Shown here one piece after another: positions 7,273 through 23,943 of a stretch of DNA of 32,000 bases. The translations under genes were made by a program, and so were the position numbers. Source of the stretch: Moraxella nasovis (lineage in GTDB: Bacteria; Pseudomonadota; Gammaproteobacteria; Pseudomonadales; Moraxellaceae); NCBI RefSeq assembly GCF_022701215.1, contig NZ_CP089976.1, positions 1 through 32,000 on the forward strand, given 5' to 3'. The notes below the pieces were generated by a model. It saw only the letters and a program-made list of their open reading frames with translations. It was not told the origin of the DNA and ran no database searches. The number at the start of each line of letters is the position of its first letter. The first letter of the stretch is position 1.

Positions 7273-7281
7273 TAAGGTCAA

Positions 7282-7620: not shown

Positions 7621-7639
7621 ACTTTTGGAGGAGTTATCT

Positions 7640-8032: not shown

Positions 8033-8109
8033 CTATAAAATCAACCAAGTCTAAAGGTAAAATTTATTTTTAAAATACAATTGTATGGGCTTGGTTAACG
8101 ATAGGATAA

Positions 8110-10503
8110 CCACCATGCCCCACCCAAACCCCCCTTACCACAGCACTCACTACAGCTTTACTGTTAAGCTGCGGTGCTGCATGGGCGAATGGGTCTTTGA
8201 TTGTTGGTGGCACCACTCCAAACGCCAACCACCTGCAAGTCACCCATCAATCAGGCATCCAAGCCAATACATCAACACTCACCGTAGACGGCAAAGGTAT
8301 CTTTACAGGTGGTTATCTGCTTACCACAGATGAACAAGGCAACCAAACTAACTTTAAAGGTGGCATTATCACCCAAGATATGCAAAACCACCTTACCTAT
8401 GACGGCAGTGCAAATAGCATCGGCATCGCAGTCAGTGGCAAAGGCATCTCACCAACAAGCCTAGGCTATGGTATAATAGACCCCACTCATCAAACCAGCA
8501 CTACCTACTCTGCTGTAACAGGACAAGCAGGGCAGGCTCATGCCACCATCAAAGACAAAGACAGTCTTAATCAAACGCTACAAAACAGCTTTGATGAACA
8601 AGCATTTAATAGGGAGCTTGGGCTACAAACTCAAATCAGTACAGAGTTTGGTAGGCAAGCTCCGAGGGTGGTGGCACAGTTTAGTCAAAACCAAATCAAT
8701 AATATCCTAGAGCAACTTAATGACCCTAATTTAAGTCAAGATCAAGCAGAACAAATTCTTGATGAAGCCAAAAAATGGGATGAGGGTGGGATTTATAGTG
8801 TGGCACTGCATACTGCTATGGGTGCATTGGGTACAGGCTCTACTGAGGGAGCATTAGCAACAGGAACTGTAGCAACAATCGCTCCTAACATCCAAAAATT
8901 AGAAGATTATTTAACAAAACAACTGACCAAAGACAGCTCAAAAGAACAAGCAGACAAAGCCAGACAAACCGCCAAAGGCTTAATTTCTTTTGTCATGCTT
9001 GCCACAGGTCAAACAGCAGGACTTGACCCATCTAGTACCATGATGGCAACGAATGTGGAGATGAATAATCGGCAGTTGCATGGGCAAGAAAAGCAACTCG
9101 CCAGAGTTTTAGTTCAAAAAGCCAAACAAAAAGGGTTAAAAAGATCTGATGGTCAGTCTTATACACTTCAAGACATTGAAGATGCCTTACGCTGGGCAAA
9201 TAGCGGTAAGTATAAAGAGCGTTATGACAGTAATTCAAATGTAGCTATAAACAAATACAATGTGGCAAATGCCAACAAATTACTTTATGACAATGCCATA
9301 GGTGATGATTATAAAAAAGATGGGAAAAGATTGTGGAAAAGTTACTCTCAAGATGGTGTAACTGTCATGCGTCAGAACTTTAATAATATTAAAAAACCTG
9401 ACACAGAACTTATCAACCTTATCCAAAAACAAACCCCAAGTTATCAGTACACTTGGAACAAAGAACACATCAAAGGTTATCAAGCACCACCGAAAATCAC
9501 AACGCCCAGAAAAGTAGTTAAGGCACCAATTTATCCGCAGAGTGCTATGGATAGAAAAAATGCGACTATTAAGAGAAGTGGGGTTGATTTAAGTAGTTCT
9601 GCTAACATACAGGCAAAGTCTGATAAGATAATGAATGAAAAAGTCATGCCTGTTGTGCAAGTTGGAATTGGTGCTACCGAAGTGGTTGCAGGTAGTGCAA
9701 TGTGTACTACTGCATTAGGCTGTACAGCTGGCGTTGCCTTAATTACTAATGGTGTAGACAACGTAGCAACAGGTGGTTATAATTATGGCAAATCATTTAG
9801 CCAACAAACAAACTCAGTAGCACTTACCAAAGGGGTAGGGCTGTCTGAAAATACTGCTGCTAATGTTAAATTAGGGGTGGATTTGGCTTCGGGAGTTGGA
9901 GCGGGTAAAGCTGTTACTAAGACAGTTGGCAAAAGTACAGTAAGCAAAGTAGATGTTTCTAATAACCAAAGATTGCCTGATGTGTATGGTGATGGGGATT
10001 TGGGTAGTGTATTGGATGTGCCACCATATACTATAAGACAAGATAATAATTTTTATTCTGAAATTAATGAAAGAGGAAATCCTAAAGCTTATCTTGACAA
10101 AAATGGAAATCTCGTTCCAGCAAATGTAAATGGTAGGGGAACTATACAAACACATATTAGAGGTAGTAACCCTAGTGAAACACCTTATATATCTACAATT
10201 GATCCAAGCATTGTAGTTTCACCTAAAAAATATGCTAAACAACAAATTATAATTGATACTCAAAATTTACAAAAGGATATAGATAATGGTGTTGTTAAAG
10301 ATATTGAAATTGTTACCCCAAAGCAAATTATTTCTGAGTTGCAAGATAAAATAAATAAGGCACAAAATAGATATGATAAGAACCCATCTAATAAGAATCG
10401 CAATAGCCTAGATAGGGCAAAATCTGATTTAAAAAATGCGATGAGAGATGGAGAGTGTCTAATTAAAGGTATCGTCCCTTGTAATTATATTAAAAAAAAG
10501 TAA
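8110..10503 (+). CDS. cdiA: orphan CdiA C-terminal fragment (FHA-repeat end, pre-toxin region, VEMNN, about 477-aa C-terminal region with unassigned toxin domain)
   Basis: Frame 1 is open from 8110, with the first start-like codon a TTG at 8197. Reads FGRQAPRVVAQF and GIYSVALHTAMGALGTGSTEGALATG. The VENN variant NVEMNN is at 9052-9069. A Gly/Ala-rich hydrophobic segment follows (VVQVGIGATEVVAGSAMCTTALGCTAGVALITNG). The terminal domain reads ..GTIQTHIRGSNPSETPYISTIDPS..ECLIKGIVP. Confidence 0.75.
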   Translation, partial: PPCPTQTPLTTALTTALLLSCGAAWANGSLIVGGTTPNANHLQVTHQSGIQANTSTLTVDGKGIFTGGYLLTTDEQGNQTNFKGGIITQDMQNHLTYDGSANSIGIAVSGKGISPTSLGYGIIDPTHQTSTTYSAVTGQAGQAHATIKDKDSLNQTLQNSFDEQAFNRELGLQTQISTEFGRQAPRVVAQFSQNQINNILEQLNDPNLSQDQAEQILDEAKKWDEGGIYSVALHTAMGALGTGSTEGALATGTVATIAPNIQKLEDYLTKQLTKDSSKEQADKARQTAKGLISFVMLATGQTAGLDPSSTMMATNVEMNNRQLHGQEKQLARVLVQKAKQKGLKRSDGQSYTLQDIEDALRWANSGKYKERYDSNSNVAINKYNVANANKLLYDNAIGDDYKKDGKRLWKSYSQDGVTVMRQNFNNIKKPDTELINLIQKQTPSYQYTWNKEHIKGYQAPPKITTPRKVVKAPIYPQSAMDRKNATIKRSGVDLSSSANIQAKSDKIMNEKVMPVVQVGIGATEVVAGSAMCTTALGCTAGVALITNGVDNVATGGYNYGKSFSQQTNSVALTKGVGLSENTAANVKLGVDLASGVGAGKAVTKTVGKSTVSKVDVSNNQRLPDVYGDGDLGSVLDVPPYTIRQDNNFYSEINERGNPKAYLDKNGNLVPANVNGRGTIQTHIRGSNPSETPYISTIDPSIVVSPKKYAKQQIIIDTQNLQKDIDNGVVKDIEIVTPKQIISELQDKINKAQNRYDKNPSNKNRNSLDRAKSDLKNAMRDGECLIKGIVPCNYIKKK

Positions 10504-10513
10504 GGTTTTTTTT

Positions 10514-11143
10514 ATGAGCTCAAAAGAAATTGATGATTTATTATATGGCATACCAACCACAGTGGACTACACTGATCTGCCAGAGGAGTTAGATGAAGAG
10601 GACATTCCATCAGAAAGAATCGATGGTTTATTAAATATAATAAATAAAGAGATGGATATTTATTTATTATTCAGAGCATCTTTCCTTTTAAACTCTTGGG
10701 GTATTGATGAGGGTTTTAATAAAATGACGGAGCTTTTATTTAGTGATAAAATTTCTTATTTGATAATAAATAATTTAAAATCATTAGATGATACATATAA
10801 GCATGCTTTATCGTCTTATATTAGTTATTGGGCAGTAAATTCCGATCATGGAAATGGTGAAAAAGCGAGAAAAAAAATATATCAACCAATAAAGATTATT
10901 ATTGACAAGGCTAACATTCAGCCATTTCAAATAAATTCTTTATTTTGGGTGATTAAGAAAGAAGGATTTTATGAATATATTCCTTTATTAAAGCAACATT
11001 TAACAAAATTGTTAAGATACCACATGAATATGTATTGGGAAATACATGACTTATCAAAATTTTTATTGGATTTAGGATTTTCTGAATTTATTAATAAAAT
11101 TTTTTACCAAAATAATAAGGGGCTATCTGATTATGGTTTATAA
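10514..11143 (+). CDS. immunity-like protein for the preceding CdiA-CT (unassigned family)
   Basis: 209-aa very AT-rich ORF that starts 10 bp after the toxin stop. Acidic N-terminus. No recognised motif. Confidence 0.45.
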   Translation: MSSKEIDDLLYGIPTTVDYTDLPEELDEEDIPSERIDGLLNIINKEMDIYLLFRASFLLNSWGIDEGFNKMTELLFSDKISYLIINNLKSLDDTYKHALSSYISYWAVNSDHGNGEKARKKIYQPIKIIIDKANIQPFQINSLFWVIKKEGFYEYIPLLKQHLTKLLRYHMNMYWEIHDLSKFLLDLGFSEFINKIFYQNNKGLSDYGL

Positions 11144-11497
11144 GTATATTTAAAACAAGGCAAAGTAAATAAATATGGTGGCACTAGTAGTTATTCATTT
11201 TTTAGAACTCTTTGATGTATCCACAGATAGTAGGGCTTTATCTCCATAAACCAGTTTGAGTATCAAAGATAAATATACTTTACATTATTAATATCCTACA
11301 CCGCCTTTTCCAACATAAATCAAGGCAAAAAAAACAAGACGGTAATTTATTAAAATGTATCAAAAAAAAAAATTGGAGATAGTAATGACCAAATATGTAC
11401 ACATTAAGAGATTTTCTTCCTGATTTGGTACAGTGCAAGAAGATGATTTACTCTACTTCTTATCAGAAGAAGATTATGACACCTATTATAATTGTGA

Positions 11498-11962
11498 TTT
11501 AAAAACCACCACCAAACAAAATCAGGCTTCATCAAAGGCAGTGGGGTAAGTATTACCATCGGTTCTCAAACAACCGACAACCAAAACAGCACCATTGGCA
11601 CCAATGATGGCAATGTGGTTTTGAGTGCAGGGGGTGATTATCGGCAAATAGGCAGTCATGTCAGTGCTTATATGGGGTCTGATACAGGCAAAGGGATAAA
11701 AGATAAAAAGCGTGGCAATGTCATCATTGATGCCAAAAATATTGATGTCATCAACAATATAACGACAAAAGACACCACCGAAAGCACTTACTTTAAACAA
11801 AAAGGGCTTACTGTCAGTGCTTCTAATAGCTTGGTAGATGGTGCCAAAGGCGTACAAAACATGGTAGAAGCTGGCAAGGAGGTGCAATCAGACAGGGCTC
11901 GTGCCATGGCCGCTCTAAGTGCTGTCAGCAAAGTCCTTTGCTTTTTTAAATTGTTTGCGTGA
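11498..11962 (+). pseudogene. cdiA: internal cdiA/fhaB-type fragment, truncated at both ends
   Basis: GFIKGSGVSITIGSQTTDNQNSTIGTNDGNVVLSAGGDYRQIGSHVSAY..GNVIIDAKNIDVINN..KQKGLTVSASNSLVDGAKG is typical FHA-2 repeat sequence. No start codon. Similarity is lost near 11935-11945, where - strand island sequence begins. Confidence 0.7.
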
Positions 11963-12121
11963 TTTAGCATGAGTTTTATTGATGGCTTGAATGGTTTGAG
12001 AATGTAAACCAAGTAATTCACCACTGCCTTTGGTGTAAATAGCTACTAACATCAACTAAGCTTACAGGCAGTAAACTGAAGCTCTCTGTGATGCTGGGTG
12101 GTGTGTTAGGCTTACACATTG

Positions 12122-12166
12122 CACTAAAAATTAAGAACCGCTAAATTTTTGATAATTTAGTGGCTC
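12122..12166 (-). terminator. terminator-like hairpin downstream of the GNAT pseudogene
   Basis: Stem gaaccgctaaat / atttagtggctc (9 of 11 paired) with an 8-nt loop. A T-rich tract follows on the - strand. Confidence 0.4.
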
Positions 12167-12194
12167 TTTGGGATTTGATAACAGGTTTATTAAA

Positions 12195-12711
12195 TCAAGT
12201 GCTTGGGATGTCTTTAATGGCGTAACACAAGCGCTTGGGGTAGTTTGATAGCTCTGTGAAGCCGTATTTTTCATAAAAGCGTTGAGCGTTTTCATCTTTT
12301 GCGCCTCATCATTTCTGATAGTCGTTTGGCGGTTTGCATAGCATGTAAAAGTAAATCAGCACCCAATCCTTGCCCTTTGCATGCTTTATCAACTGCAAGC
12401 CTTCCAAGTAGTACGCACAGAATAGGGCTGTGGGGGCTTTGACGTTTCAATCTCTCACTATCATCGCGTTGTATGATATGGCACGCTGATAAGGTGTAAA
12501 AACCTGTCAGGCGGTTATTGTCTATTGCGCCATAAATAACCGTTTCATGACGTTTTAAAAGTTGGCTCGCCTGCTGTTTGATAAAACGATTTAATGGTAG
12601 GACACCGCAATCAAAAGTTGTCTTATCGTGGTTTCGGGTGAGCTTAGTTATCAACACGCACAAAACCCCTAATTGTGTACAATTATAAGAAATACGACAA
12701 ACAAAGTCCAA
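12195..12711 (-). pseudogene. TacT-like GNAT acetyltransferase toxin, degraded
   Basis: HDKTTFDCGVLPLNRFIKQQASQ..GFYTLSACHI..LGRLAVDKACKGQGLGADLL, then the frame is lost. The expected C-terminus GAKDENAQRFYEKYGFTELSNY lies in another frame and several residues appear deleted. Only a garbled DUF1778-like remnant is visible upstream (12720-12880). Confidence 0.6.
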
Positions 12712-12886
12712 TGATTGTTTAAAAGTAAAACTGCTTGTAATAGTAAATTGACGAAGGATTCAACAAAAAAAATCTAGCATAAGAAAGTGTCGTTGGACTA
12801 ATCGGTTTGATGTTTTTTGTCTTGCGCCTTCTTGGCGAACTATTCGGAAATTCCGAGTAGTTAAGCTCATTTATTATCAACAATTT

Positions 12887-13255
12887 TCAACATACCATTG
12901 CTCGCATAGCTCTTCGGCTTGATCCACCAACTCCTGTAGAATGCCATTAGCATCGAGTCCCGCTTCATCCAAAAACCCCCAGGCTTTACCACTTTGTTCT
13001 TCTGCACCAAAGCGACTGGCAAAAGTCATATCAAAACCATTGTATGCTTATGTTATTTTCGCGGTCATCATTTTGCAGTTCAATATAGAATTGCTTGGTT
13101 TTGCTACCATCATTGATTGCGACATCAAAATAGACACAAAAGCCGTCCACTCCTATCTTTGTGGGATAGTTACAGCCTTGGCCATAGATTTCTACGACTT
13201 CTGCTAAGGTGTCTACGATATTGGTAGAAAGTATTTTAAGGGGTTTGTGTGCCAT
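12887..13255 (-). pseudogene. small acidic hypothetical protein, frame broken near 13030-13045
   Basis: MAHKPLKILSTNIVDTLAEVVEIYGQG.. continues in another frame as AYNGFDMTFASRFGAEEQSGKAWGFLDEAGLDANGILQELVDQAEELCEQWY. No family recognised. Confidence 0.35.
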
Positions 13256-13311
13256 TCTTGGTCTCTGATGTTTTTACATGCTATTAAGTATAGGGGTTGT
13301 TGTTTGAGTCT

Positions 13312-14266
13312 TTAAATCTCAAAACATTCGCTAATTTGCGATAGTTTTGAGACAAAAAGGTCATCTAGATGGTCAGATAATGCTTGATGGAATTCATCTA
13401 AATTAAACCAATCTTCAAGTTTTGATATATTGGGCAATACGTCCCAATTAGGGCGGTATTCTGCTATTATGTGTGAGCGATGTTCATCTAATAGCTCTCT
13501 GACATTATCGCCTGGTTTTAAATCATTGACAAACTGCACCGCTGCTATGGCAATCAAGTCATAAATTTGCTGGGAATTATCAAGTACATATTTTGCAACA
13601 CGTTGCTTGGTGTTGAGCTCATATGTATCAACAAAATGCTTGATTTTTTTCAGCATTGTCATGAACAATATTGCAAAAATCATCATCAAGCCATACGCAG
13701 TTCTGCCAATTTAGGTCTTTAATAAGAACTGCAATGTCAAAATCATCACTTTGTAATTCCAAAGTATCCACAATCAACTGTTTTAGTAGGGGGTGTGACT
13801 CTTTTGCCGCATCTACTGCCATTTCAACAAAACCCAATTCATTTAAATTTTTGGCGGTGTAAGGTAATTCTGCATTTATGTATAGTTCAAAGAAAGGCTC
13901 TTGTTTTTTGTAACCAAGTTTAACCGTCTGTCTAACAAGAAATTGCAAGCCTGGCTCATAGTCATGATAAGCAAGTTCCATGTCCCAATCATATTTTTTA
14001 AGCTCATCGGTAAACTCATCATCAAGACCACCAGTAAGAAAGTCTCGTAATGTGGCACTCATACACCACCGACCAAAGCCGACAAAAGGATAGCTTATTC
14101 CGTCTTGGAGACCGTCTTTGAACTGTGATTTTTCAACCCAAAAACCATAAATGAAAGAATGTTGGTTTTCATCTAACCAAGTAAAAACTTTGGTTAGAGT
14201 TTCAAGAATTTGGGGGTTTTGTGTGGTTATGATTAAAGAACCATAAGCGTCGCTGATATTAGCCAT
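13312..14266 (-). CDS. acidic hypothetical protein (about 318 aa if the T7-run frameshift at 13644-13650 is corrected)
   Basis: ORFs 13628-14266 and 13312-13689 overlap at a homopolymer. One base change joins ..NIVHDNAEK to IKHFVDTYELN. RBS aggag precedes the ATG at 14266. The conserved leader lies upstream. Confidence 0.5.
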
Positions 14267-14370
14267 TTGTTATCTCCTGTTTAACGTTGATTAGATATAT
14301 ATAGAATAAAACAAGAGAAGAATAAACAAAAAGCAATAATATCTAACATAACCTAACAGCCGTTAGGCTA
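14267..14370 (-). promoter_or_regulatory. conserved leader, copy 1 (GCCTAACGG, pyrimidine-rich tract, TATATATCTAAT, RBS)
   Basis: The - strand reads TTAGCCTAACGGCTG..TTGCTTTTTGTTTATTCTTCTCTTGTTTTATTCTATATATATCTAATCAACG..AGGAG..ATG. The same architecture occurs at 19146-19251 and 20706-20838. Confidence 0.55.
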
Positions 14371-14406
14371 AGTAAATTATCATTCACGCCCGCATTCAGC
14401 TTTGTT

Positions 14407-14434
14407 AAAATCATCGTTACTTAGTAACGATTTT
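14407..14434 (-). terminator. hairpin with flanking A/T runs (bidirectional terminator-like)
   Basis: atcgttac tta gtaacgat (8-bp stem) flanked by aaaa and tttt, downstream of vapC. Confidence 0.4.
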
Positions 14435-14469
14435 AATATCTGTGCTGCCAAGCCTTCGCTGACAGTCTA

Positions 14470-14526
14470 GGCGGTGGGTGTGGCTTGCTTCTTATCTAAT
14501 CAACCGCCCAAGCCACAAGGAGTAAT
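14470..14526. repeat. 55-60-bp hairpin element, copy 1
   Basis: ggcggtgggtgtggcttgcttcTTATCTAATCAACCGCCCAAGCCACAAGGagtaatc, with stem gtggcttg/caagccac. It abuts the vapC stop. Confidence 0.8.
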
Positions 14527-14930
14527 CAGTTTTCTGTTCCAGATACCCAGTTCTCCACAGCCAAATCAAAACCTTCAAAATCTCGTTCGTTATTAGTAAC
14601 CAGCGTAAGATTTTGGCTGATAGCATGGCTGGCAATGAGCGTATCAAAACTAGCCTTGTGTTTTTTGCTTTGCATTATTTTACCAAAAATAACCGCCGCC
14701 TTGTCATCAAAGGGCAAAATAGTTATCATGCTTTGTAAGCGGTCAAAGATGGATTGTGATTGATGGATATTTAGTCCACGTTGCAACTCTGCCCATGTGA
14801 TTGCACTTATGGCGACTTCACCAACAAAACAACGGCTAAAATGCTCAACCACTGATGGCGGGGTATGTTTCATTAAATAAATGCATATGTTGGTGTCAAG
14901 CAAATACTTAGGTTGTATTACCATTGGCAC
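14526..14930 (-). CDS. vapC: PIN-domain toxin VapC
   Basis: KYLLDTNICIYLMK.. N-terminal PIN motif, later ..TLVTNNERDF. Overlaps the vapB stop. Confidence 0.85.
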   Translation of the reverse strand: MPMVIQPKYLLDTNICIYLMKHTPPSVVEHFSRCFVGEVAISAITWAELQRGLNIHQSQSIFDRLQSMITILPFDDKAAVIFGKIMQSKKHKASFDTLIASHAISQNLTLVTNNERDFEGFDLAVENWVSGTEN

Positions 14931-15136
14931 TCATTCTCCACAAGTTCGGCACGCTCAATATCTGCACCGATTTGACGGAGTAAGTGGGGCACTTCGCCCA
15001 AAGTTTTAACCGGTTCAATGATGACACAGCCATTCTCTTTGCGTAGAGAGACAGGGGTGTTTGCTCCAAAAGCCAGTGCTTTTGGTAAACGTACCGCTTG
15101 GCTGTTGCCAGAGACAAAAGGGATGGTAACAATCAT
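14918..15136 (-). CDS. vapB: AbrB/SpoVT-type antitoxin VapB
   Basis: FVSGNSQAVRLPKALAF is a typical SpoVT-AbrB antitoxin N-terminus. 72 aa, directly upstream of vapC. Confidence 0.8.
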   Translation of the reverse strand: MIVTIPFVSGNSQAVRLPKALAFGANTPVSLRKENGCVIIEPVKTLGEVPHLLRQIGADIERAELVENECQW

Positions 15137-15164
15137 TGTTAAGCTCCAAACTATGTATATCTTT

Positions 15165-15193
15165 AAGTATATACATAAAGATATACAAAGTCA
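15165..15193 (-). promoter_or_regulatory. vapBC-1 sigma70-like promoter overlapping a palindromic operator
   Basis: The - strand reads TTGACT-N17-TATACT. The inverted repeat gtatatcttta..taaagatatac spans the spacer and the -10 element, about 25 nt upstream of the vapB ATG. Confidence 0.6.
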
Positions 15194-15497
15194 ATGATTT
15201 TGCAATTTCACCACAAAAACCAGACTAGCTTTGTGAAGAACGGTAATTATTCATGGCGGAGGTAAATGCACTCTCAATCTCAGAAAAAAGCCATGTAGTC
15301 AAATGCACAACCGCAGATGGCTTCAATTGCAATGACCGTTAGGCTTACCACTATACAAATAATCAGCTTGCATTTCTAATCTATGTTATATTTTTTAATA
15401 ACTTTTGATTATTGTTTTTCGTTGTTTACTAATAGTTGAGTTATCAAACTTTTACTTGATAACTCAAAAAACCACTACATAAGCCATTAAAACTTAT

Positions 15498-15552
15498 GTG
15501 GTGGGGTGTGGCTTGGGTTTTTTATCTAATCAACCACCCAAGCCACGAGGGG
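15498..15552. repeat. 55-60-bp hairpin element, copy 2
   Basis: gtggtggggtgtggcttgggtttTTTATCTAATCAACCACCCAAGCCACGAGGgg, near-identical in core to copies 1 and 3. Confidence 0.8.
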
Positions 15553-15691
15553 TAGGCGTTTTGGTTTTAGGGTCTGTTGGAGTTTGTGTGCCATTGCCGA
15601 CACCATAATCATTAACCAATTCCGCAAAAATAGCAAAAGCAACATCGCTCATCATACGTTGTTCATAATCAAAACCATTTGGCACAGTGTT

Positions 15692-16153
15692 TCATGAAAT
15701 GGATTTATTGATGCCTATTACGAGACGATAAGGTTCATCGGTTGGCACAAAACCAAAGGTTTGATAATATTTCCAGGCTTTCATTTTTCGCATCGATTAC
15801 TACAAATGCCATACCGCTAAACAGAGAAAATTTTTTGATGCCTTTTAGGGCATCTGACAAGGCTTGTTTACTTAATCCTTTACCTTGATGATGAATATCT
15901 ACGCCAATACGACCAATTAAGATTGCTGGAATTTGCTTGGGATAGCCTTTAACTTTTCCAAATTCATTAAAAATGGTTATATTTGATAAAGTATAAAAGG
16001 CCAAATTTTATGATTGTCATCGACTAAAACATGAGTTCTAGCAATGCCTTTTTTGGCGTGTTGGCTTGCCATTGTGTGCAAATAGCGGTTAATGACTTCA
16101 TTGCCACAATCAAAATCCGCCTTGTCATGGTGCTTGCCCAATAGCTCAAACAT
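15692..16153 (-). pseudogene. TacT-like GNAT acetyltransferase toxin with two frame breaks
   Basis: MFELLGKHHDKADFDCGNEVINRYLHTMASQHAKKGIARTHVLVDD.. / ..AFYTLSNITI..IGRIGVDIHHQGKGLSKQAL.. / ..KAWKYYQTFGFVPTDEPYRL. The breaks lie near 16003-16009 and 15776-15790, both at short A/T runs. Confidence 0.7.
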
Positions 16154-16434
16154 TGATTTTCTCCCCTTTCATCATGCGTTCGCCTAATTCCAATAACTCA
16201 CGCATAAGGGGGGGTTGGAGATGGTGGGTTTTCTAGTAGCTCAATGATTTGTAAGGCTTGTTTTTCGGTCAATACTAAATTTGCACCGTCTGAATTTAAA
16301 CCGTGCTTATCCAGTTCTAGCCAAATATCATCGCTATTGGCCACACTTTGCAACAATTCATCGGTGGTAATGCCTTGTGCTTTGGCGGTCTCAATAATCG
16401 CTATGGCGGTTGCAGGTGGTAAATCTAAAATCAT
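16146..16434 (-). CDS. DUF1778 (TacA)-like antitoxin, frame broken at G7 run 16208-16214
   Basis: ILDLPPATAIAIIETAKAQGITTDELLQSV...LVLTEKQALQIIELLENPPSPTP. With one base change at the run the frame continues ..LMRELLELGERMMKGEKINV and ends in an ATGTTTGA overlap with the GNAT start. Confidence 0.6.
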
Positions 16435-16675
16435 CTATTTAATCTCCATTAATAATCAATCTTTAAAAGTTGTCATATTTTAAATGTTTGTTTTTCGCTA
16501 TAAGCCTTGCCATGTCTAGGGTGTGTCGGTTTTTTGTGATTTTGGTTTTGGGTTGGTTCTGTAAAGTTTTTTGGGTGTCGGATTTTTAAATCTTAGGGTA
16601 ATACCAGGGTGTTTACGCCTATGAAACAGACACATAAAAGCACCACAAGGGGGAATAACGGGCGTAAATGGGCAT

Positions 16676-16972
16676 TTATGCAATCAAAATTTGCTTATCA
16701 TTGATGGTAGAGGTAACGGTCAATTTACCGCCTAACGCTTCAACGTATTTGGCAAGCGTGGATAAATGCACATCAACACCATTTTCAATTTTGCTGATAT
16801 TAGCTTGTGATACGCCCATTTTGTCCGCCAGCTCCTTTTGTGATAAATGGGCGGTTTGTCTAAGCTGTGATAATTCATAGCTTTGTTTTAGGGTGCGGGC
16901 TTTGGTGTGTATTTTGGCTTGCTCATCTTTGGGTAGGCTTGCCAAAAAGGTTTGATGATTGGTAAAGCTCAT
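16676..16972 (-). CDS. XRE-family helix-turn-helix protein (antitoxin-like)
   Basis: LRQTAHLSQKELADKMGVSQANISKIENG is a canonical XRE HTH. Confidence 0.75.
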   Translation of the reverse strand: MSFTNHQTFLASLPKDEQAKIHTKARTLKQSYELSQLRQTAHLSQKELADKMGVSQANISKIENGVDVHLSTLAKYVEALGGKLTVTSTINDKQILIA

Positions 16973-17019
16973 TTTGTCAGCCCTTATTATCTTATGCCAT
17001 GACTTAACGCTCTGCGATT

Positions 17020-17283
17020 TTAGGCAAACGCCAAGCCCACTTCTTCCCCTAAATTAGCGTTAATATTTACTAATGCGTCAAGGCTAAATTTGCTAATCTT
17101 GCCCTGTAATAGGTCATTTAGGCGTGGTTGTGTGATACCGCATTCTTTTGCGATTTGGGCTTGTGTGCCGTCCATTTCGCTAATTAGCTTTTGAATATGG
17201 CTCATCAGCTGGGCCCTTAACTTTAAATTTGCACTTTGGCCGGGTGTGTCGCTTAGTGCGTCAAATACGCTGTTAAATTTCAT
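17020..17283 (-). CDS. XRE-family HTH antitoxin (HigA-like partner of the upstream Gp49-type toxin)
   Basis: GTQAQIAKECGITQPRLNDLLQGKISKFSLDALV. It starts 6 bp after the toxin stop. Confidence 0.7.
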   Translation of the reverse strand: MKFNSVFDALSDTPGQSANLKLRAQLMSHIQKLISEMDGTQAQIAKECGITQPRLNDLLQGKISKFSLDALVNINANLGEEVGLAFA

Positions 17284-17288
17284 CTTGA

Positions 17289-17606
17289 TTATCCTTGTAT
17301 TAGTTTTAGGCGGTCTTTGGCAAGCTCTATATCAGCTTTTGGGGTCTTTTGGGTTTTCTTGGTAAAGGCGTGTAATACATACACAGTATCAGCAAATTTG
17401 GCGGTATAAATTACCCTATAAATGCCTTATGCGTCTTTTAATCGTATTTCTACCACGCCAACACCAATACTAGGCATATATTTAAAATCACTTGGCATTT
17501 CGCCATTTTGCACCAAATGCAATTGATAGCCCGTATCTTGCTTTATGTCATTTGGAAAAGCTCTAATATCATCTAAGGACGTTCCCAAAAATTCAATATC
17601 TTTCAT
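17289..17606 (-). pseudogene. Gp49/HigB-like RelE-superfamily toxin with in-frame TAA
   Basis: MKDIEFLGTSLDDIRAFPNDIKQDTGYQLHLVQNGEMPSDFKYMPSIGVGVVEIRLKDA*GIYRVIYTAKFADTVYVLHAFTKKTQKTPKADIELAKDRL. The stop is at 17427-17429 and is not at a homopolymer. Confidence 0.7.
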
Positions 17607-17795
17607 TGTTATTTTAATTTGCCTTGTTTTCTTAAATTATATCAGTTTTAATATAATAACACAAGGGTTTTTCTTATGTCGCAATTTATAAACATGATAA
17701 CTGCCTTATGCTCAAACAACCTTAAATCTTAATTCCGCATTTGAAATGTAAAAATAGCAGGTGTGAACGCCAAAACACCGCTTTTTTATCATCTT

Positions 17796-17830
17796 AAAAA
17801 GCCTTTACCCCCTATAAATAAAGGCTTTTA
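17796..17830 (-). terminator. rho-independent terminator after vapBC-2
   Basis: Perfect 10-bp stem aaagccttta / taaaggcttt with an 11-nt loop. On the - strand the stem runs into a T tract. Confidence 0.5.
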
Positions 17831-17852
17831 CTACTTTATTTGTGCAAGATTT

Positions 17853-17910
17853 GGTGGTGTGGGCGGCTTAGGTTTTATCTAATCAACCGCCCAAGCCACA
17901 AGGAGTAATC
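17853..17910. repeat. 55-60-bp hairpin element, copy 3
   Basis: ggtggtgtgggcggcttaggtTTTATCTAATCAACCGCCCAAGCCACAAGGagtaatc. The 3' 38 bp are identical to copy 1. It lies 28 bp beyond the vapC-2 stop. Confidence 0.8.
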
Positions 17911-17938
17911 GCTTGCCATTATTAGTAGTGATTGTTAA

Positions 17939-18331
17939 TTATTCTAACCAGTTTTGCCATTTTAAGCCGTCAACTCGGCTAAACTCTTTGACATTATGCG
18001 TAATCAAGGTTAGATTTTTAGATAACGCTTGTCCTGCTATTAGCATGTCATACGCCCCGATCACTTGCCCCTGTCTTTGTAGGTCTGCTCGCACCTTGCC
18101 AGCACATAGAGCATCTTTATCATCAAAAGGCAATCTTACAAAGGGTAATTTGTCAATTTTTGCCAAATTTTCACGCTGTTTTTGACTATGATATGCCCCA
18201 TAATACAGCTCGAACAGCACAATATCCGACAACGCAAAATCGCTCACTTTACGTTGTTTTAGTCGTGCGATAAGCACAGGATTTTGCTTTTGTAGGGCAA
18301 TGATGATGTTGGTGTCAAGCAGGTATTTCAT
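17939..18331 (-). CDS. vapC: PIN-domain toxin VapC (second copy)
   Basis: MKYLLDTNIIIALQK.., ..LTLITHNVKEFSRV. 4-bp overlap with vapB. Confidence 0.85.
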   Translation of the reverse strand: MKYLLDTNIIIALQKQNPVLIARLKQRKVSDFALSDIVLFELYYGAYHSQKQRENLAKIDKLPFVRLPFDDKDALCAGKVRADLQRQGQVIGAYDMLIAGQALSKNLTLITHNVKEFSRVDGLKWQNWLE

Positions 18332-18573
18332 GCAAAATCTCGCTTGCTGATGGGGTCGTCTTTTAGCATTGCGACTGCTTGCTCCATGTCATCATCAAAG
18401 GACGAAACATCATCCAGCCAGCCCCAATCATCTATGATGGGCGTGATGATGAGTTGGTTGCCGTGTTTTTTTAACTGTACTTTATCGCCATCAAAGCGAA
18501 ATTCTTTGGGTAAGCGAATGGCTTGTGAATTGCCACTATAAAAAAGGCGTGCGGTAATCATATTTTTTCTCAT
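18328..18573 (-). CDS. vapB: AbrB/SpoVT-type antitoxin VapB (second copy)
   Basis: ARLFYSGNSQAIRLPKEFRF. The start may be the internal ATG at 18561. Confidence 0.8.
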   Translation of the reverse strand: MRKNMITARLFYSGNSQAIRLPKEFRFDGDKVQLKKHGNQLIITPIIDDWGWLDDVSSFDDDMEQAVAMLKDDPISKRDFA

Positions 18574-18594
18574 TGATGTATATATGATTGGTAT

Positions 18595-18623
18595 ATATTA
18601 TTAAACTTTATGTCATTTGTCAA
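18595..18623 (-). promoter_or_regulatory. vapBC-2 sigma70-like promoter
   Basis: The - strand reads TTGACA-N17-TAATAT. AT-rich inverted repeats lie between the -10 element and the start codon. Confidence 0.55.
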
Positions 18624-18749
18624 TTTTTACACTCAAATGCAGGAGCAAAACCGTAAGGAGAAATAGACAGGTTAACTGCTTGGTATATGGTGACGCGTTT
18701 AGCCAGCTCAGAACCACTTTTATCTGTTTTTTACCACAACGCTTAAATT

Positions 18750-19145
18750 TTAAAAACCCAGCTTAAAATCAGCATATTTGTTGTTTTGGATTTTAACCAA
18801 CAACTTTTTGATTACCATGTGGTTTGCCATATCAAAAACACCCCAAAATACATCGTCAATCAAATCATAATTAGGGTCGTTTTTTTGTATTTCTTGCAAA
18901 AATCCGATACGGTTTGATAAGGCTAAAAAGGTTTGGTGGTAAGCATGTTGCCAATTGTGAGTGCATAAGATATTACTTAAGACTTCTGAATTATCCATAA
19001 AAGCGTCTAATGCTTCTTTTGGGTCATTGTGGGTGTCTAATAATGATATAATACATTCGTCAGATACTTCATCAAGAAGTAGCATCAAGTTACTTTCTTG
19101 TTTGGATATATATTCACTTGTATTAGTGTTTAGTTCTAAAGCCAT
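18750..19145 (-). CDS. small acidic hypothetical protein
   Basis: 131 aa, Asp/Glu-rich, with no signal peptide. Preceded by conserved leader copy 2. Confidence 0.5.
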   Translation of the reverse strand: MALELNTNTSEYISKQESNLMLLLDEVSDECIISLLDTHNDPKEALDAFMDNSEVLSNILCTHNWQHAYHQTFLALSNRIGFLQEIQKNDPNYDLIDDVFWGVFDMANHMVIKKLLVKIQNNKYADFKLGF

Positions 19146-19251
19146 GGCGGCACTCCTTATGATTTGGGTTAATTAGATATATAATAAAGGAGGCAGGAAA
19201 GGGAAGGAAGCAAACAACACCTACGAAGCGCACAACAGCCGTTAGGCTAAT
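19146..19251 (-). promoter_or_regulatory. conserved leader, copy 2
   Basis: The - strand reads TTAGCCTAACGGCTG..TTGTTTGCTTCCTTCCCTTTCCTGCCTCCTTTATTATATATCTAATTAACC..AGGAG..ATG. Confidence 0.55.
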
Positions 19252-19448
19252 TCAATTTGCATCACGCCTGCAAACCAAACAACCAACGAAAAACACCGCC
19301 AAGCCCATCAAAGATTTGGCGGGGTGTGGCTATTGTCGTGAGGGTGATGCACTTCGTTCCAAAAAAAATAATGAAACTTGGCGCAAAATGCCATAATTAA
19401 GATATACAACGCCTATGGAATTGCTAAATTTGTCTTTGGGTAGGTATT

Positions 19449-19911
19449 CTACTTGATAAATCCTAGATTGCTCAACCGCAACAGAATACTAGGAGTAGAT
19501 ACCCAAAAAAGCGTTTGCAAGCACTGAGACATCTGTCATATCTTTTTCAAAAATTAGATGCCTAAGAATTGCTTTTGGCATCAAAAGTTCGGCAGCAAAA
19601 GCACTGGCTTCTTTAGAAGCTTCTAATTCATTAAAATTAGATAAAACATACCGCCCTAGCTCGTGAGCAAGCATAAAACGCTGACGATGAGGGTGCTGAT
19701 TACTGTTGATTGTAATCACATAAGTGCTATTTTTACGATCGTACTCAATTTTTCCAGAACTATCGCTGGGCATTGGTTCAATTTTAACCAATAAATCAGG
19801 ATTATCCATTTTTGCACGCATTTTATCGATAATTTGCTCAGGTATGACCGGAAGTTTCCTATCCCAGTAACTATCTAAAATACTTTGGGCATAATTTACG
19901 GCTCTTGTCAT
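19449..19911 (-). CDS. ImmA/IrrE-like zinc metallopeptidase, frame broken at A6 run 19505-19510
   Basis: HEXXH motif in FMLAHELGRYVL, then ..AFAAELLMPK. One base change restores the typical C-terminus ..AFWVSTPSILLRLSNLGFIK. Confidence 0.65.
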
Positions 19912-20041
19912 TTGTTTCTCCTTTTAACTAAGATGATACCGCCATGATTTACAAAACCCCACCACAAGTTGATTGATAGTGGGGGTGGTTGTTTACTTAA
20001 ATTTACTTAAGTAGGGTGATGATTTTATCAGCAAAATTATC

Positions 20042-20296
20042 TTAATCTGCCCATCTAGCACAACCTTGGTAATCTTGCAGCCACCTGGCACACTTGTAAA
20101 GCACTTTGTTGGTAAAGGTTGTGCTGATAAAAACTGTTTTATTGTTCTTACGATTTTTTATAAAGCCTAGGCAACCTAGTTTTTTGCCATTTGCAGTTTT
20201 TTGATTGATATGAAATTCCAAATCCATTGAAGGCTGTGCTTTTTTTGTTGCTTTTTTAATGGTATTTTTGGTTTTAGTGGTTAACAATACAGTCAT
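20042..20296 (-). CDS. small basic hypothetical protein
   Basis: 84 aa, Lys-rich N-terminus (TKTKNTIKKATKKAQ). No motif recognised. Confidence 0.4.
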   Translation of the reverse strand: MTVLLTTKTKNTIKKATKKAQPSMDLEFHINQKTANGKKLGCLGFIKNRKNNKTVFISTTFTNKVLYKCARWLQDYQGCARWAD

Positions 20297-20333
20297 AACA
20301 TACTCCTATCGAAGACAAAAGTTAGAATAAAAA

Positions 20334-20705
20334 CTAAAAAGGACAGCAAAAGATATAGCTGGATTCTGGGTCTTTTGATAAAGAGTGAATAAACTTATCC
20401 AAAGCTTTGTCAAAATCATCAAACCATTGCCCCTCTTCACAACCAACGCCACGAAAATAGGCAGATTGACACAATGTAGGGTTGTAGAGGTGTTGTAGCC
20501 CTGCCAGTAAATCCTCTTTTAATGAGGGAAAGGTGTCACGGCTAAAGCTTTCTAATATCATGTCTGAACTAACATCTGTAATATTGGCTGAGTAACCGCC
20601 ATCTTCCTCATAGATGGCTATACGCAAGCCCATATCCTTGGCAAGTTCAAATATTTTTTGATTAATTAAATCTTGTTGATTATAAGTAGATGTATTTGTT
20701 GTCAT
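20334..20705 (-). CDS. small acidic hypothetical protein
   Basis: 123 aa, acidic. RBS aggag. Preceded by conserved leader copy 3. Confidence 0.5.
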   Translation of the reverse strand: MTTNTSTYNQQDLINQKIFELAKDMGLRIAIYEEDGGYSANITDVSSDMILESFSRDTFPSLKEDLLAGLQHLYNPTLCQSAYFRGVGCEEGQWFDDFDKALDKFIHSLSKDPESSYIFCCPF

Positions 20706-20838
20706 GGATATACTCCTGATTCATAAGATGAATTAAAAATAATTTGATAATTTGTTTAGGGATGTATATAGATTAAAAGAAAAAAGGCAGAGAAGGATAC
20801 GCAACCATCCTAAAAGACCCAAGTCGCCGTTAGGCTAA
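20706..20838 (-). promoter_or_regulatory. conserved leader, copy 3
   Basis: The - strand reads TTAGCCTAACGGCGA..TATCCTTCTCTGCCTTTTTTCTTTTAATCTATATACATCCCTAAAC..AGGAG..ATG. Confidence 0.5.
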
Positions 20839-21246
20839 TGAGTGTTTTTTATGTATTTCTTTTTTTTTAATTTTATTTATTAATATTATTGAATTATTTA
20901 TTTAGTTTTTATATAATAGTCATGTCATCAATAAAAATAAAGAAGTTTTTTATTTTTATTAATGATTAGCCCACACCGCCGTAAAACCACCCTATTCATG
21001 GGGTGGATATAAGGCAATGGGTGTGCTATAATCATCTTAACTTCACCCAAAGTACAAGAATGAGCGGATAATTTTGCAAGTATGCAACTTGTTCTTTTAA
21101 GTTAAGTGAAATGAGTTTGTAATTTAACACCAGCCCTAATAAGTTCGTGCTAATTTTTTTAGCAATCATTAACAAGTAGGACGACTTACTAGGAATAAGA
21201 AAGATGTCTTGTATCTTGGTGTCATACAACAAAAAAACATTTTTTT

Positions 21247-21300
21247 CGTCTGGGACGTCAGACGCTTATAGAAGGAAGCTCCTGCTTTTAGGCAGGGGAG
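21247..21300. other. isolated GC-rich double hairpin in an AT-rich gene-poor stretch
   Basis: cgtctg-ggacgt-cagacg (21247-21264) and gctcctgc-ttttag-gcaggggag (21278-21300). ACGTCA is repeated at 21256 and 21302. Confidence 0.3.
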
Positions 21301-21838
21301 TACGTCATTGGATTTTTAATGAATTGTATGGATAATAATTCAAATAATAAAAAAACGTTGAGCATTAGCCATAATAATGATTACTTTGGTTGCTTTATTT
21401 CTAATTATTAAAAATATCAATACTTGCTATTTCTGTCTTGTTAATTTTACCTTTTCTTTGCTTCTTCAACAATAATTTCTGTCAGTCTTTTTCTTTCTTT
21501 AATCAAGTAAGAAATTTCTGACATTGGATTTTTAGCCATAAATATGACAATAATTATTATTGTTGAATAAAGAAGTATCATATTTGTTTTTTAACATATC
21601 TTATATTTCCTTAAAATTTAAACAAGTAAACTATCTAACTTCTTAATAGAAATATCCAAATCGCTTATTTTACGCTTATATTTTATTTTTAGCTTTTTTA
21701 AATGTTTTTCTTTAATGAAGTAATGCAATTTATTTTCAATTTTAATAATTTTACATTTATTTTTTGTATTTAGTAAGGAATATATAATTGGAGCAAAACA
21801 TAAAATTAAACTTGAAATAGCTAAAAATGCAGAAATAA

Positions 21839-22210: not shown

Positions 22211-22292
22211 ATGTCGCCATCATAAATCACGGTTTGTCGTCTAAGCGAACTTCATACTCGCCACCGCCTAATAAAGCTCCCAGTTATTTATA

Positions 22293-22318
22293 TATCAATA
22301 GGGTACACCCTAATAATA
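22293..22318. promoter_or_regulatory. candidate serine-recombinase crossover site
   Basis: TATCAATAGGGT-AC-ACCCTAATAATA has 12-bp half-sites matching 10 of 12 as an inverted repeat around a central dinucleotide. It lies about 100 bp upstream of the recombinase ATG. Confidence 0.35.
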
Positions 22319-22416
22319 GTATTATAACACCCACAAAAAACAATATCAATAGATTTTATTTAATAATTTTGATATGATAGTATTAAAAATATTATTAGGT
22401 GATATTGTATTATTGT

Positions 22417-23064: not shown

Positions 23065-23066
23065 AA

Positions 23067-23912: not shown

Positions 23913-23930
23913 TGTCCGAATTCGGACACT
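23911..23930. promoter_or_regulatory. 20-bp perfect palindrome (candidate oriT inverted repeat or operator)
   Basis: agtgtccgaattcggacact is its own reverse complement. It overlaps the fic stop and lies 14 bp upstream of the relaxase ORF. No T-run follows on either strand. Confidence 0.45.
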
Positions 23931-23943
23931 CTACAAGGATAAA

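Follow-up and report, generated by a model that had tools for sequence, protein, structure and literature searches.

A short sequence, GTTAGGCT[AT]A, forms the invariant centre of a composite repeat that lies at the junctions between unrelated gene modules in Moraxella nasovis. Within the window (the whole 32-kb stretch of DNA that was analysed) these junction repeats are confined to 12-21 kb, 9 of the 32 kb, and judging by the sequence collections scanned the composite repeat appears to be private to this accessory island of ~9 kb. We suggest, with a probability of roughly one in three, that the junctions may be relic att-like joints left by the serial accretion of non-autonomous modules.

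Five copies of the core were found in the window, all on the + strand and all intergenic, where a first-order Markov model predicts 0.15 (P~6e-7). The longer form CCGTTAGGCT[AT]A is present at 4/5 of these (0.0036 expected under the same type of model, P~7e-12). Searching for CGTTAGGCTWA with one mismatch gave five matches, a number reached in none of 100 shuffles. The extended motif is therefore non-chance. The first-pass annotation had reported the shorter GTTAGGC at five intergenic positions, and all five coordinates proved exact (12105, 14362, 15338, 19241 and 20829, + strand). GTTAGGC also occurs on the - strand at 16730-16736, within the HTH_3 gene, and at 29602-29608; seven occurrences against 2.8 expected were reached in 5/100 shuffles. 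Set against the background of the window, the 7-mer by itself is little evidence, and it is the extended motif that stands well above expectation. The five cores are as follows.

20827 to 20838, - strand: core J6, at the rightmost junction, CCGTTAGGCTAA on the + strand and TTAGCCTAACGG in gene direction; the ATG at 20705 is 124 nt downstream
19239 to 19250, - strand: core J5; the ATG at 19145 is 96 nt downstream
15336 to 15347, - strand: core J3, CCGTTAGGCTTA; the vapB-1 start is 202 nt downstream
14360 to 14371, - strand: core J2; the ATG at 14266 is 96 nt downstream
12104 to 12114, - strand: core J1, tGTTAGGCTTA, with a divergent flank; the stop codon of a 54-aa ORF is 20 nt before it

Read in the direction of the genes (- strand), the copies lie 3′ of a hairpin or stop codon and 5′ of the next - strand start, with 81 to 202 nt between core and ATG. 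This agrees with the earlier placement of the motif between a hairpin or terminator and the following start. The accompanying idea that the motif partitions the island holds for five module boundaries, but three unit boundaries (17607-17938, 18574-18749 and 19912-20041) are without a copy. The invariant block measures 12-13 bp (TTAGCCTAACGGC in gene direction), and these 13 nt are embedded in flanks that are only ~65-70% identical. The core has no consistent pair of inverted binding half-sites and is palindromic at J2 only, where it forms one half of an imperfect local palindrome of 12 bp, ACATAACCTAAC AGCC GTTAGGCTAAGT.

The core is one part of a larger arrangement. In gene direction a D1-type hairpin follows the stop codon, succeeded after 0-160 nt by the core and then by a pyrimidine-rich leader, which runs for ~80-100 nt up to the ribosome-binding site (RBS) of an unrelated first gene, making a composite of 110-250 nt. 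Junctions J2, J5 and J6 have 110-140 nt around the core in common (nhmmer E 1e-32 to 6e-24, and alignment), whereas J1 and J3 show no leader similarity to the other junctions and share the core alone. The long elements and the D1 copies are listed here.

14270 to 14410, - strand: long junction element J2 (nhmmer E 1.3e-32), in which a 35-nt upstream arm precedes the core, and a pyrimidine-rich tract and TATATATCTAATCAAC lead to the RBS of a 212-aa ORF
19152 to 19292, - strand: long junction element J5 (nhmmer E 1.1e-32), laid out as J2 and leading into a 131-aa ORF unrelated to the 212-aa ORF behind J2
20739 to 20855, - strand: long junction element J6 (nhmmer E 6e-24), core and downstream leader arm only; its upstream side is unrelated AT-rich DNA
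14470 to 14527, - strand: D1-1 hairpin repeat, with a 9-bp stem and GTTGATTAGATA within its conserved loop; the vapC-1 stop codon is directly adjacent
15500 to 15557, - strand: D1-2 hairpin repeat, with an 11-bp stem
17853 to 17910, - strand: D1-3 hairpin repeat, the vapC-2 stop 29 nt before it; the sole D1 copy with no core downstream
19293 to 19336, - strand: degenerate D1-like hairpin/terminator on the upstream side of J5, CACCGCCAAGCC..TTGGCGGGGTGTGGCT

Both arms are present at J2 and J5. Their upstream arms are 85% identical over 40 nt, the similarity beyond the core is matched by 2/300 shuffles, and the spacing from core to ATG is identical at 96 nt. J6 is 70% identical to J2 over 79 nt. 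Homology among the leaders extends as far as the RBS, and the genes behind J2, J5 and J6 (212, 131 and 123 aa) show no detectable kinship to each other. The inner junction J3 is without the downstream arm. J1, outermost on the left, has a D1-like upstream arm only (3/300 shuffles as good), its core sitting within the D1-like hairpin arm (12097-12114, GGTGGTGTGTTAGGCTTA, compared with GGTGGTGTGGGCGGCTTA in D1-3). Moreover, a perfect 12-bp inverted repeat, GTTGATTAGATA...TATCTAATCAAC, 196 nt apart, brackets J2. The D1 copies are stem-loops whose stem length differs from copy to copy; they are 81-86% identical as DNA, whereas VapC-1 and VapC-2 are 37% identical as proteins. The junction repeats are far better conserved than the neighbouring genes.

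Between the motifs lie modules of 2257, 976, 3903 and 1588 bp, each with 2 to about 9 genes and with internal operators (15150-15191) and hairpin terminators among them.

19489 to 20705, - strand: module J6-J5, with 123-aa and 84-aa ORFs of no assigned function, a hairpin and an M78/IrrE-like peptidase
15530 to 19145, - strand: module J5-J3, with a 131-aa orphan ORF, vapBC-2, a truncated Gp49/HigB-like gene, an HTH_37 gene, the HTH_3 gene, a 78-aa ORF and a split GNAT pseudogene
14526 to 15136, - strand: module J3-J2, with vapBC-1 and an operator palindrome at 15150-15191
12131 to 14266, - strand: module J2-J1, with 212-aa, 125-aa and 74-aa ORFs, a GNAT acetyltransferase and the 54-aa ORF

Two of the three junction-led ORFs (212, 131 and 123 aa) returned no relatives in an indexed search of 5.8 billion proteins; a full HMMER scan gave 20 remote homologues for the 212-aa ORF (best 33%, E 2e-18). 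What the vapBC-1 unit has in common with its relatives runs from the operator to the D1-like 3′ flank only, inside the core-bounded module, and no core was found in 161 kb of these relatives. D1-like sequence was also seen behind a vapC homologue in an unrelated MAG. Searches with the D1 and core patterns gave no matches, or chance matches only, in genome, metagenome, viral and plasmid collections, nor did the collections scanned yield a second genome, an empty site or another order of the modules.

Our preferred inference is that recombination at the core, by a recombinase acting in trans and encoded outside the window, may have given rise to this pattern. Small non-autonomous modules, each with both arms of the site, would have been added one by one; an inner junction would then resemble attP, with both arms kept, and the junctions at the two ends would resemble attL and attR, with a single arm each. 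An array built in this way would behave as an integron or as tandem cis-mobilisable elements do, yet would not be an integron. The non-random core and its uniform orientation support such a history, as do the long homology that J2, J5 and J6 share ahead of unrelated genes, the strong conservation of the repeats beside less conserved genes, the confinement of the vapBC-1 unit common to relatives within its core-bounded module, and the surrounding mosaic of mobile-element remnants. Because J1 and J3 have only the core in common, similarity breaks at the core, as is expected of a crossover point. The outer J6 retains a downstream arm only, the outer J1 an upstream arm only, and J2 and J5 both; the arm pattern fits 4/5 junctions, since J3 is an inner junction without the downstream arm. 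Against accretion, boundaries such as 17607-17938 contain D1 but no core, three of the copies could simply be diverged duplicates, consistent inverted half-sites are missing from the core, and the window holds no recombinase candidate, the adjacent resolvase being of plasmid type.

22290 to 23064, + strand: small serine recombinase of plasmid type (gene 22399-23064) with an AT-rich res-like palindrome upstream

This recombinase, 72% identical to a plasmid resolvase that Moraxella bovoculi carries in a backbone context, is encoded at one end of the array and divergently from it, and is probably unrelated to the junctions. The tandem accretion of CIMEs and integrative elements at one att site likewise produces direct short-core repeats at every joint; the island modules also have no recombinase of their own, and one conserved arm is kept at the outer joints and both at 2/3 inner joints. 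However, described CIMEs are far larger than these modules, neither a tRNA nor a gene-3′ end can be recognised as attB, and there is no cognate integrase or ICE in the window. If the core is a recombination joint, it would represent a cassette-accretion system invisible to integron-finding tools, and a concrete, testable site in a family that has its toxin-antitoxin (TA) and defence genes clustered on mobile DNA. It is distinctly unlikely that the island is a gene-capture array of a new kind, working or recently so, in which multi-gene, self-expressed modules would be serially inserted at the core TTAGCCTAACGGC, with a hairpin arm on one side and a leader arm on the other, by a non-integron recombinase of the host or encoded outside the window. 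Were that true, integron-like logic with a non-attC site would operate in Moraxellaceae.

Local duplication of a terminator/leader element is almost as likely as att-like accretion. In this reading the repeats would be a locally spread cis-regulatory boundary element made of the D1 terminator/insulator hairpin, a short site and the leader. The short site might be a 9-bp palindrome, TTAGSCTAA, or an AGCC-TAAC-GGCT stem-loop, serving as the binding site of a regulator or as a site of RNA processing, and the pyrimidine-rich leader could be rut-like or S1-binding. Duplication, gene conversion or MITE-like insertion may have multiplied such an element within the island, with its core perhaps conserved as a binding or processing site and not as a crossover point. 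Mosaic repeats of intergenic DNA, such as BOX, NIME and Correia elements, are common, and the order and orientation of the parts, fixed relative to the genes, the shared 96-nt spacing at J2 and J5, the homology continuing to the RBS, the genuine D1 stem-loops of variable stem length and the D1-like sequence in the MAG all favour regulation, as do the 12-bp inverted repeats of J2, which resemble MITE ends. However, the conserved part showed no canonical sigma-70 promoter, also on manual inspection, the stem of 3-4 bp is too weak alone and absent at J1, J1 and J3 hold the core without any leader, the copies are limited to 9 of the 32 kb, and Rfam gave no match. Repeats of the BOX/NIME/Correia/ERIC type share the modular intergenic sub-elements (here D1, core and leader) and the hairpins with conserved sequence, and one copy here is bounded by 12-bp inverted repeats; those of the island differ in lying in one 9-kb stretch of the window instead of being dispersed and in all having the same orientation relative to genes. 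Dispersed repeats of the REP/MITE/BOX kind occur in numerous copies across a genome, and hairpins or inverted repeats at their ends are frequent. Less probable still is that the repeats are functionless, being what decay has left of one or two segmental duplications, together with two chance or coincidental short matches (J1 and J3). The island does show decay (the split GNAT, the truncated HigB-like gene and a lone operator fragment of repeat family D14), and the extended homology is found in three copies only. Yet two extra intergenic 10-mers on the same strand are unlikely when 0.15 are expected, the 13-nt block is invariant between flanks of ~65-70% identity, and the duplicated leaders precede unrelated genes. 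If this is only a local terminator/leader repeat, it is an ordinary, species-private intergenic repeat, and its main value lies in showing that a GTTRRRY match and a TA-rich, co-oriented array do not suffice for an integron call.

The first-pass annotation had noted that GTTAGGC equals the attC core consensus GTTRRRY, but the window contains 71 GTTRRRY strings, which makes this match uninformative. We scanned 11900-21100 on both strands for RYYYAAC and GTTRRRY 57-141 nt apart, which gave one motif site (J2, 14279-14368, 90 nt) and one unrelated site (12758-12866); the paired R/L boxes that the annotation had failed to find are indeed lacking, a RYYYAAC partner existing at 1/5 sites. The J2 candidate folds at -5.5 kcal/mol with 3-5/25 terminal bases paired, compared with -15 to -20 kcal/mol and 11-20/25 for six attCs of a class 1 integron (L126) used as positive control, and fold z-scores at the remaining junctions range from -1.5 to +0.5. 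The annotation was right that the window has no tyrosine integrase: none, nor any other Phage_integrase-type recombinase, was found in the 32 kb when 64 ORFs (among them every ORF of at least 110 aa except 30619-30972, + strand, antisense within a scanned gene) were compared with Pfam. Integron cassettes are mostly single promoterless ORFs, each then followed by its own attC. An integron cassette array is not supported, there being no attC hairpins, no IntI in the window and multi-gene modules with their own operators and terminators. There is very little chance that this is a canonical array that has lost its integrase (CALIN), GCCTAAC being the R'' box of degenerate attC sites. The co-oriented small genes with TA pairs and orphan ORFs would suit it, GCCTAAC fits RYYYAAC, and GTTAAAC at J2 lies 7 nt before the RBS, the expected place of an R' box; however, J5 and J6 have CCAAATC and CCTAAAC at the homologous positions, neither of which is a GTTRRRY string. 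A short conserved junction core between unrelated genes, formally RYYYAAC/GTTRRRY, and a recombinase gene divergent from the array at one end are further likenesses to integron arrays. The differences are the missing hairpin with paired R''/R' and L''/L' boxes, a core of 12-13 bp where that of the integron has 7, a repeat of 110-250 nt that takes in the leader and RBS of the next gene, modules of 1-3.9 kb, and a neighbouring recombinase that is a serine resolvase. The fallback offered in the annotation, some other modular recombination or regulatory architecture, is compatible with the composite repeat.

Xer-type (dif-like) sites, with modules inserted by the host XerCD at the terminus as in IMEX, or as a Moraxella analogue of the Acinetobacter pdif modules, are quite improbable. 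In the 11-6-11 register of a 28-bp dif site (XerC arm, spacer, XerD arm) J5 reads GAAGCGCACAA CAGCCG TTAGGCTAATT and matches Escherichia coli dif at 16/22, the joint best in the window, but an unrelated site scores the same. The right arm TTAGGCTAAnT is conserved and the left arms are variable, as at IMEX junctions; however, the other four left arms are poor matches to dif, and the right arm has 2-5/11 differences from TTATGTTAAAT across the five sites (3 at J5), at XerD-arm positions that are normally invariant. The absence of recombinases from the modules and a terminus-like switch of GC skew and gene orientation across the island would accord with Xer sites. The 17-mer of right arm and spacer is in no Moraxella species representative and is therefore not the dif of the genus, which an IMEX array would include. 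Acinetobacter dif1 fits the proteobacterial consensus, and pdif modules, whose flanking sites are inversely oriented, are reported to be lacking in Moraxella plasmids (PMC6449649). The two genera belong to the same bacterial family, and the island shares with pdif and IMEX modules their small size, TA pairs, short bounding sites and lack of a recombinase, as well as a weakly dif-like J5. The five sites are nevertheless direct repeats where pdif sites alternate, their arms depart from the XerC/XerD consensus, and the motif is absent from other Moraxella genomes.

Lastly, the rAID arrays of Bacteroidales (recombinase-associated acquired interbacterial defence) combine a tyrosine recombinase with short orphan immunity genes that share one orientation and with motifs conserved between the genes (PMC12247911). 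The island likewise has co-oriented short genes and a conserved intergenic motif, and adjoins polymorphic-toxin/immunity genes. It differs in belonging to another phylum, in its unrelated motif, in the lack of a tyrosine recombinase in the window and in its gene content of TA pairs and orphan ORFs, those of no assigned function having no immunity-family match. The surroundings of the array are a mosaic of mobile-element remnants, and the left flank of the window is an orphan toxin/immunity array.

The string GTTAGGC was found on the + strand at all five positions at which the first-pass annotation had placed it, namely 12105, 14362, 15338, 19241 and 20829 (junctions J1, J2, J3, J5 and J6, from left to right). 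Two further copies absent from that annotation lie on the - strand, one within a gene at 16730 and the other at 29602, and the 7-mer itself is scarcely enriched (7 copies against 2.8 expected, a count equalled in 5 of 100 shuffles). The extended string GTTAGGCT[AT]A occurs 5 times where 0.15 copies are expected (P~6e-7), and the longer string CCGTTAGGCT[AT]A 4 times against an expectation of 0.0036. Because these extended strings are rare by expectation and the five extended copies are all intergenic and confined to a single strand, the motif observation is real and stronger than first stated. We refer to the recurring 12-13 bp string containing GTTAGGC as the core; it can be written CCGTTAGGCTWA and reads TTAGCCTAACGGC in the direction of the genes (- strand). 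The proposal that the motif partitions the island into modules holds for five boundaries but not for those at 17607-17938, 18574-18749 and 19912-20041, which carry no copy.

The features of the island and its flanks are as follows.

5665-11962 (+): orphan polymorphic-toxin/immunity array, left of the island
5665-5859 (+): GH-E nuclease fragment, in this array
5859-6386 (+): ankyrin protein, in this array
7282-7620 (+): Endonuclea_NS_2 toxin domain
7625-8032 (+): YezG-like immunity gene
12.0-21.0 kb (-): the island, a run of small genes
22290-22418: res-like AT-rich palindrome upstream of a serine recombinase

The island contains two vapBC pairs (vapBC-1 between J3 and J2, vapBC-2 between J5 and J3), a Gp49/HigB-like gene that is truncated and paired with an HTH_37 gene, an HTH_3 gene, two GNAT genes (one intact, one split), an M78 peptidase and several ORFs without family assignment. 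Its HTH proteins are encoded at 16676-16972 and 17020-17283. Two ORFs have identical counterparts on the Moraxella nasovis chromosome, from which the window comes: LU293_00110 for 13628-14266 and LU293_00170 for 18750-19145. Decay is visible in the second GNAT (15735-16153), which is split by a frameshift and of which both pieces match the intact copy at 12292-12711, and in the Gp49/HigB-like toxin (17427-17606), which is cut to 59 aa and adjoins its intact HTH_37 partner. A 42-nt palindrome upstream of vapB-1 (15150-15191), an operator of the GTATATACTnnnnnGATATAC type, is kept upstream of vapB homologues in two unrelated contigs (L127 and L001). A lone operator-like fragment at 19396-19424, downstream of the M78 gene and with no adjoining vapBC, suggests the trace of a deleted toxin-antitoxin module.

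Alignment revealed that J2, J5 and J6 have in common an element of 110-140 nt around the core, in which the core is followed, after about 25 nt, by a tract rich in pyrimidines, then by TTTATTnTATATA and TCTAAT, and finally by the next gene's ribosome-binding site. In self-BLAST, J2 matched J6 at 70% over 79 nt and J5 at 85% over 40 nt, and an nhmmer profile of the junctions recovered exactly these three (E 1e-32 to 6e-24) and nothing more within the window. J2 and J5 also match over about 35 nt on the upstream side of the core and, further out, in a GC-rich hairpin region resembling D1, a separate hairpin repeat; this similarity was reached by 2 of 300 shuffles. The core-to-ATG spacing is equal at J2 and J5, and J2 is flanked by a perfect 12-bp inverted repeat with arms 196 nt apart. 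J1 and J3 have the core alone in common with the other junctions. The core is invariant, and the flanks around it have drifted to approximately 65-70% identity.

D1 itself is present in three copies, 81-86% identical across 58 nt, each with a stem of 9-11 bp and a conserved loop, positioned at or just past a stop codon. The J1 core sits within an arm that resembles D1 (a similarity reached by 3 of 300 shuffles). The core had been described as always lying between a hairpin or terminator and the next unit, and the order of stop codon, D1-type hairpin, core and next unit is indeed kept at J1, J2, J3 and J5; the exception is J6, whose upstream side is unrelated AT-rich DNA. A putative vapC remnant beside the copy D1-2 had no tblastn support, the similarity of the hairpin at 19953-19990 to D1 was at chance level, and no convincing sigma-70 promoter was seen within the conserved leader. 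Rfam searches at gathering and permissive thresholds, and a tRNA scan, gave no match.

The first genes after J2, J5 and J6 are mutually unrelated save for a short N-terminal resemblance, and two of the three had no relatives in an indexed search of 5.8 billion proteins. Moreover, VapC-1 and VapC-2 are 37% identical, against 86% for the D1 copies behind them. These comparisons show that the repeats are not simply diverging in step with their neighbouring genes. The 212-aa ORF at 13628-14266, one of those two genes, is no true orphan, a full HMMER scan having returned 20 remote homologues (best 33% identity) with a common N-terminus, MANISxAxG. Its AlphaFold model (pLDDT 78, pTM 0.70) has an alpha/beta fold, and no match was found in Pfam, PDB sequences or PDB folds.

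The GTTAGGC sites had been likened to integron attC sites. The fit to GTTRRRY carries no weight, since the window contains 71 such strings. In a scan of both strands for RYYYAAC...GTTRRRY pairs 50-160 nt apart, under strict and relaxed settings and with folding, a partner box was found for only one of the five copies, that of J2 (14279-14368). This 90-nt candidate folds at -5.5 kcal/mol (DNA parameters) with 3-5 of its 25 terminal bases paired with the opposite end, and the positions homologous to its putative R' box read CCAAATC at J5 and CCTAAAC at J6. The folds of the remaining junctions were no better than those of shuffled sequence. As a positive control, the identical script was run on a class 1 integron (L126, dfrA12-orfF-aadA2-cmlA1-aadA1-qacL), where the strict scan found 3 of 6 attC sites and relaxed ends (NNNNAAC..GTTNNNN) all six, with folds of -15 to -20 kcal/mol and 11-20 of 25 terminal bases paired. 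A further candidate at 12758-12866 (109 nt, -17 kcal/mol, DNA parameters) was rejected; its ends fit RYYYAAC/GTTRRRY but do not pair with each other, and its fold consists of internal terminator-like hairpins in an intergenic region. The 32 kb encode no tyrosine recombinase, in line with the first-pass annotation, which had noted no tyrosine integrase. The modules between motif copies measure 976-3903 bp, contain from 2 to about 9 genes, and carry operator palindromes and hairpin terminators of their own. With one partner box in five, a weak fold, no IntI and multi-gene modules, the attC reading falls, and the island is neither an integron nor a CALIN by any defining feature that could be tested.

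Relatives of the repeats were sought more widely. Island DNA had no match among PLSDB plasmids in near or distant modes, and a 21-mer D1 pattern had none in 185,579 species genomes and JGI metagenomes. Core 17/18-mers gave no Moraxella match in viral, genome and metagenome collections; the hits were scattered singles in unrelated taxa and unrelated tiny AGCC-TAAC-GGCT hairpins. The 17-mer scan also hit tandem short hairpin repeats such as TTAGCCTAACGGCTGTTATTAAGCTTCGCTGTTGATAAC in Bacteroidales MAGs (L090, L095, L023, L068, L122 and L125), which are unrelated to the Moraxella element and a conspicuous repeat family there. Eight vapC homologues at 18 loci each belong to a lone vapBC in unrelated surroundings, most amid core genes and one amid phage-like genes, and the core motif was absent from these loci (161 kb). 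Homologues of VapC-1 (58-79% identity) occur in MAGs, Wielerella bovis and another Moraxella, with an operator identical in type and, at one locus, a D1-like 3' flank.

To the right of the island, past an AT-rich stretch, a plasmid-like remnant (22290-24625) encodes a small serine recombinase of 221 aa, a Fic protein that matches PADLOC candidate PDC-S04, and a truncated relaxase (a 162-aa fragment). Small serine recombinases have been statistically linked to toxin-antitoxin and defence genes in a 2026 study, which speculated on a mobilising role (PMC13552941). The enzyme here shares 72% identity with a resolvase encoded among backbone genes on a Moraxella bovoculi plasmid, and that plasmid also carries the AT-rich palindrome found upstream of the recombinase gene; the recombinase is best read as a plasmid resolvase. 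We rejected it as a cassette enzyme, since the proteins closest to it are resolvases of Moraxella plasmids, set in a backbone context and sharing its res-like upstream region, and the core has no flanking inverted half-sites.

The junction repeat is real, structured and private; any mobility or function of it is putative. The core is invariant within drifted flanks and occurs twice without flanking similarity; it is either under constraint of its own or regenerated by the process that forms the joints. Read in gene direction, the downstream leader arm alone is present at J6 and the D1-like upstream arm alone at J1, and J2 and J5 have both, a distribution suggestive of an attL/attP-like/attR pattern. 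Small non-autonomous modules, each with a two-armed site, may have been added serially at one core, which would leave the outer junctions one-armed (attL/attR) and the inner ones two-armed (attP-like). Such serial accretion is the best single explanation, at a probability of only about 0.35; against it, J3 breaks the arm pattern, the core lacks consistent inverted half-sites, and neither a recombinase candidate nor a second allele was seen. A second explanation has almost the same probability: a boundary element made up of terminator and leader, with a short site for protein binding or RNA processing, would have spread by local duplication or MITE-like insertion. The inverted repeat bracketing J2 and the matched spacing at J2 and J5 speak for it.

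Xer/dif sites are very unlikely, despite a skew and gene polarity switch of the kind expected at a replication terminus: GC skew is positive over 1-12 kb, near zero over 12-25 kb and negative over 25-32 kb, and the genes converge. J5 ties for the best dif-like site in the window, but the arms are poor, all sites are direct, and no Moraxella representative has this sequence as its dif. The window holds no canonical dif site (best 16/22 to E. coli dif). The island works most like the cassette or accretion arrays represented by integrons, CIME arrays and Bacteroidales rAID arrays, the last of which by definition combine a tyrosine recombinase with short co-oriented genes and conserved motifs between genes (PMC12247911). 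On the tests run it falls outside the integrons. Set against rAID arrays, it has short co-oriented genes and a conserved motif between them but no tyrosine recombinase in the window; set against CIME arrays, it has the core at five joints, of which the inner joint J3 lacks the downstream arm. A gene-capture array of a non-attC type is likewise improbable.

The left toxin/immunity array also holds a 768-aa ORF without a family hit. The array ends in what looks like a repeat fragment of filamentous-haemagglutinin/CdiA type, cut off at about 11930 at the start of the island, which was called by eye from the translation and had no hit in a single Pfam scan. At 4865-4960, within a low-GC part of the left flank, lie about seven perfect tandem copies of a 14-bp repeat, GGGAAAGTGAGATT. 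Lastly, a possible small RNA gene lies at 21004-21330 (+). Its sigma-70-like promoter is a good one of the extended -10 type (TGGATA-17-TATAAT, preceded by TG), and about 290 nt of non-coding DNA rich in hairpins come after it (fold z-score -1.9, no Rfam match).
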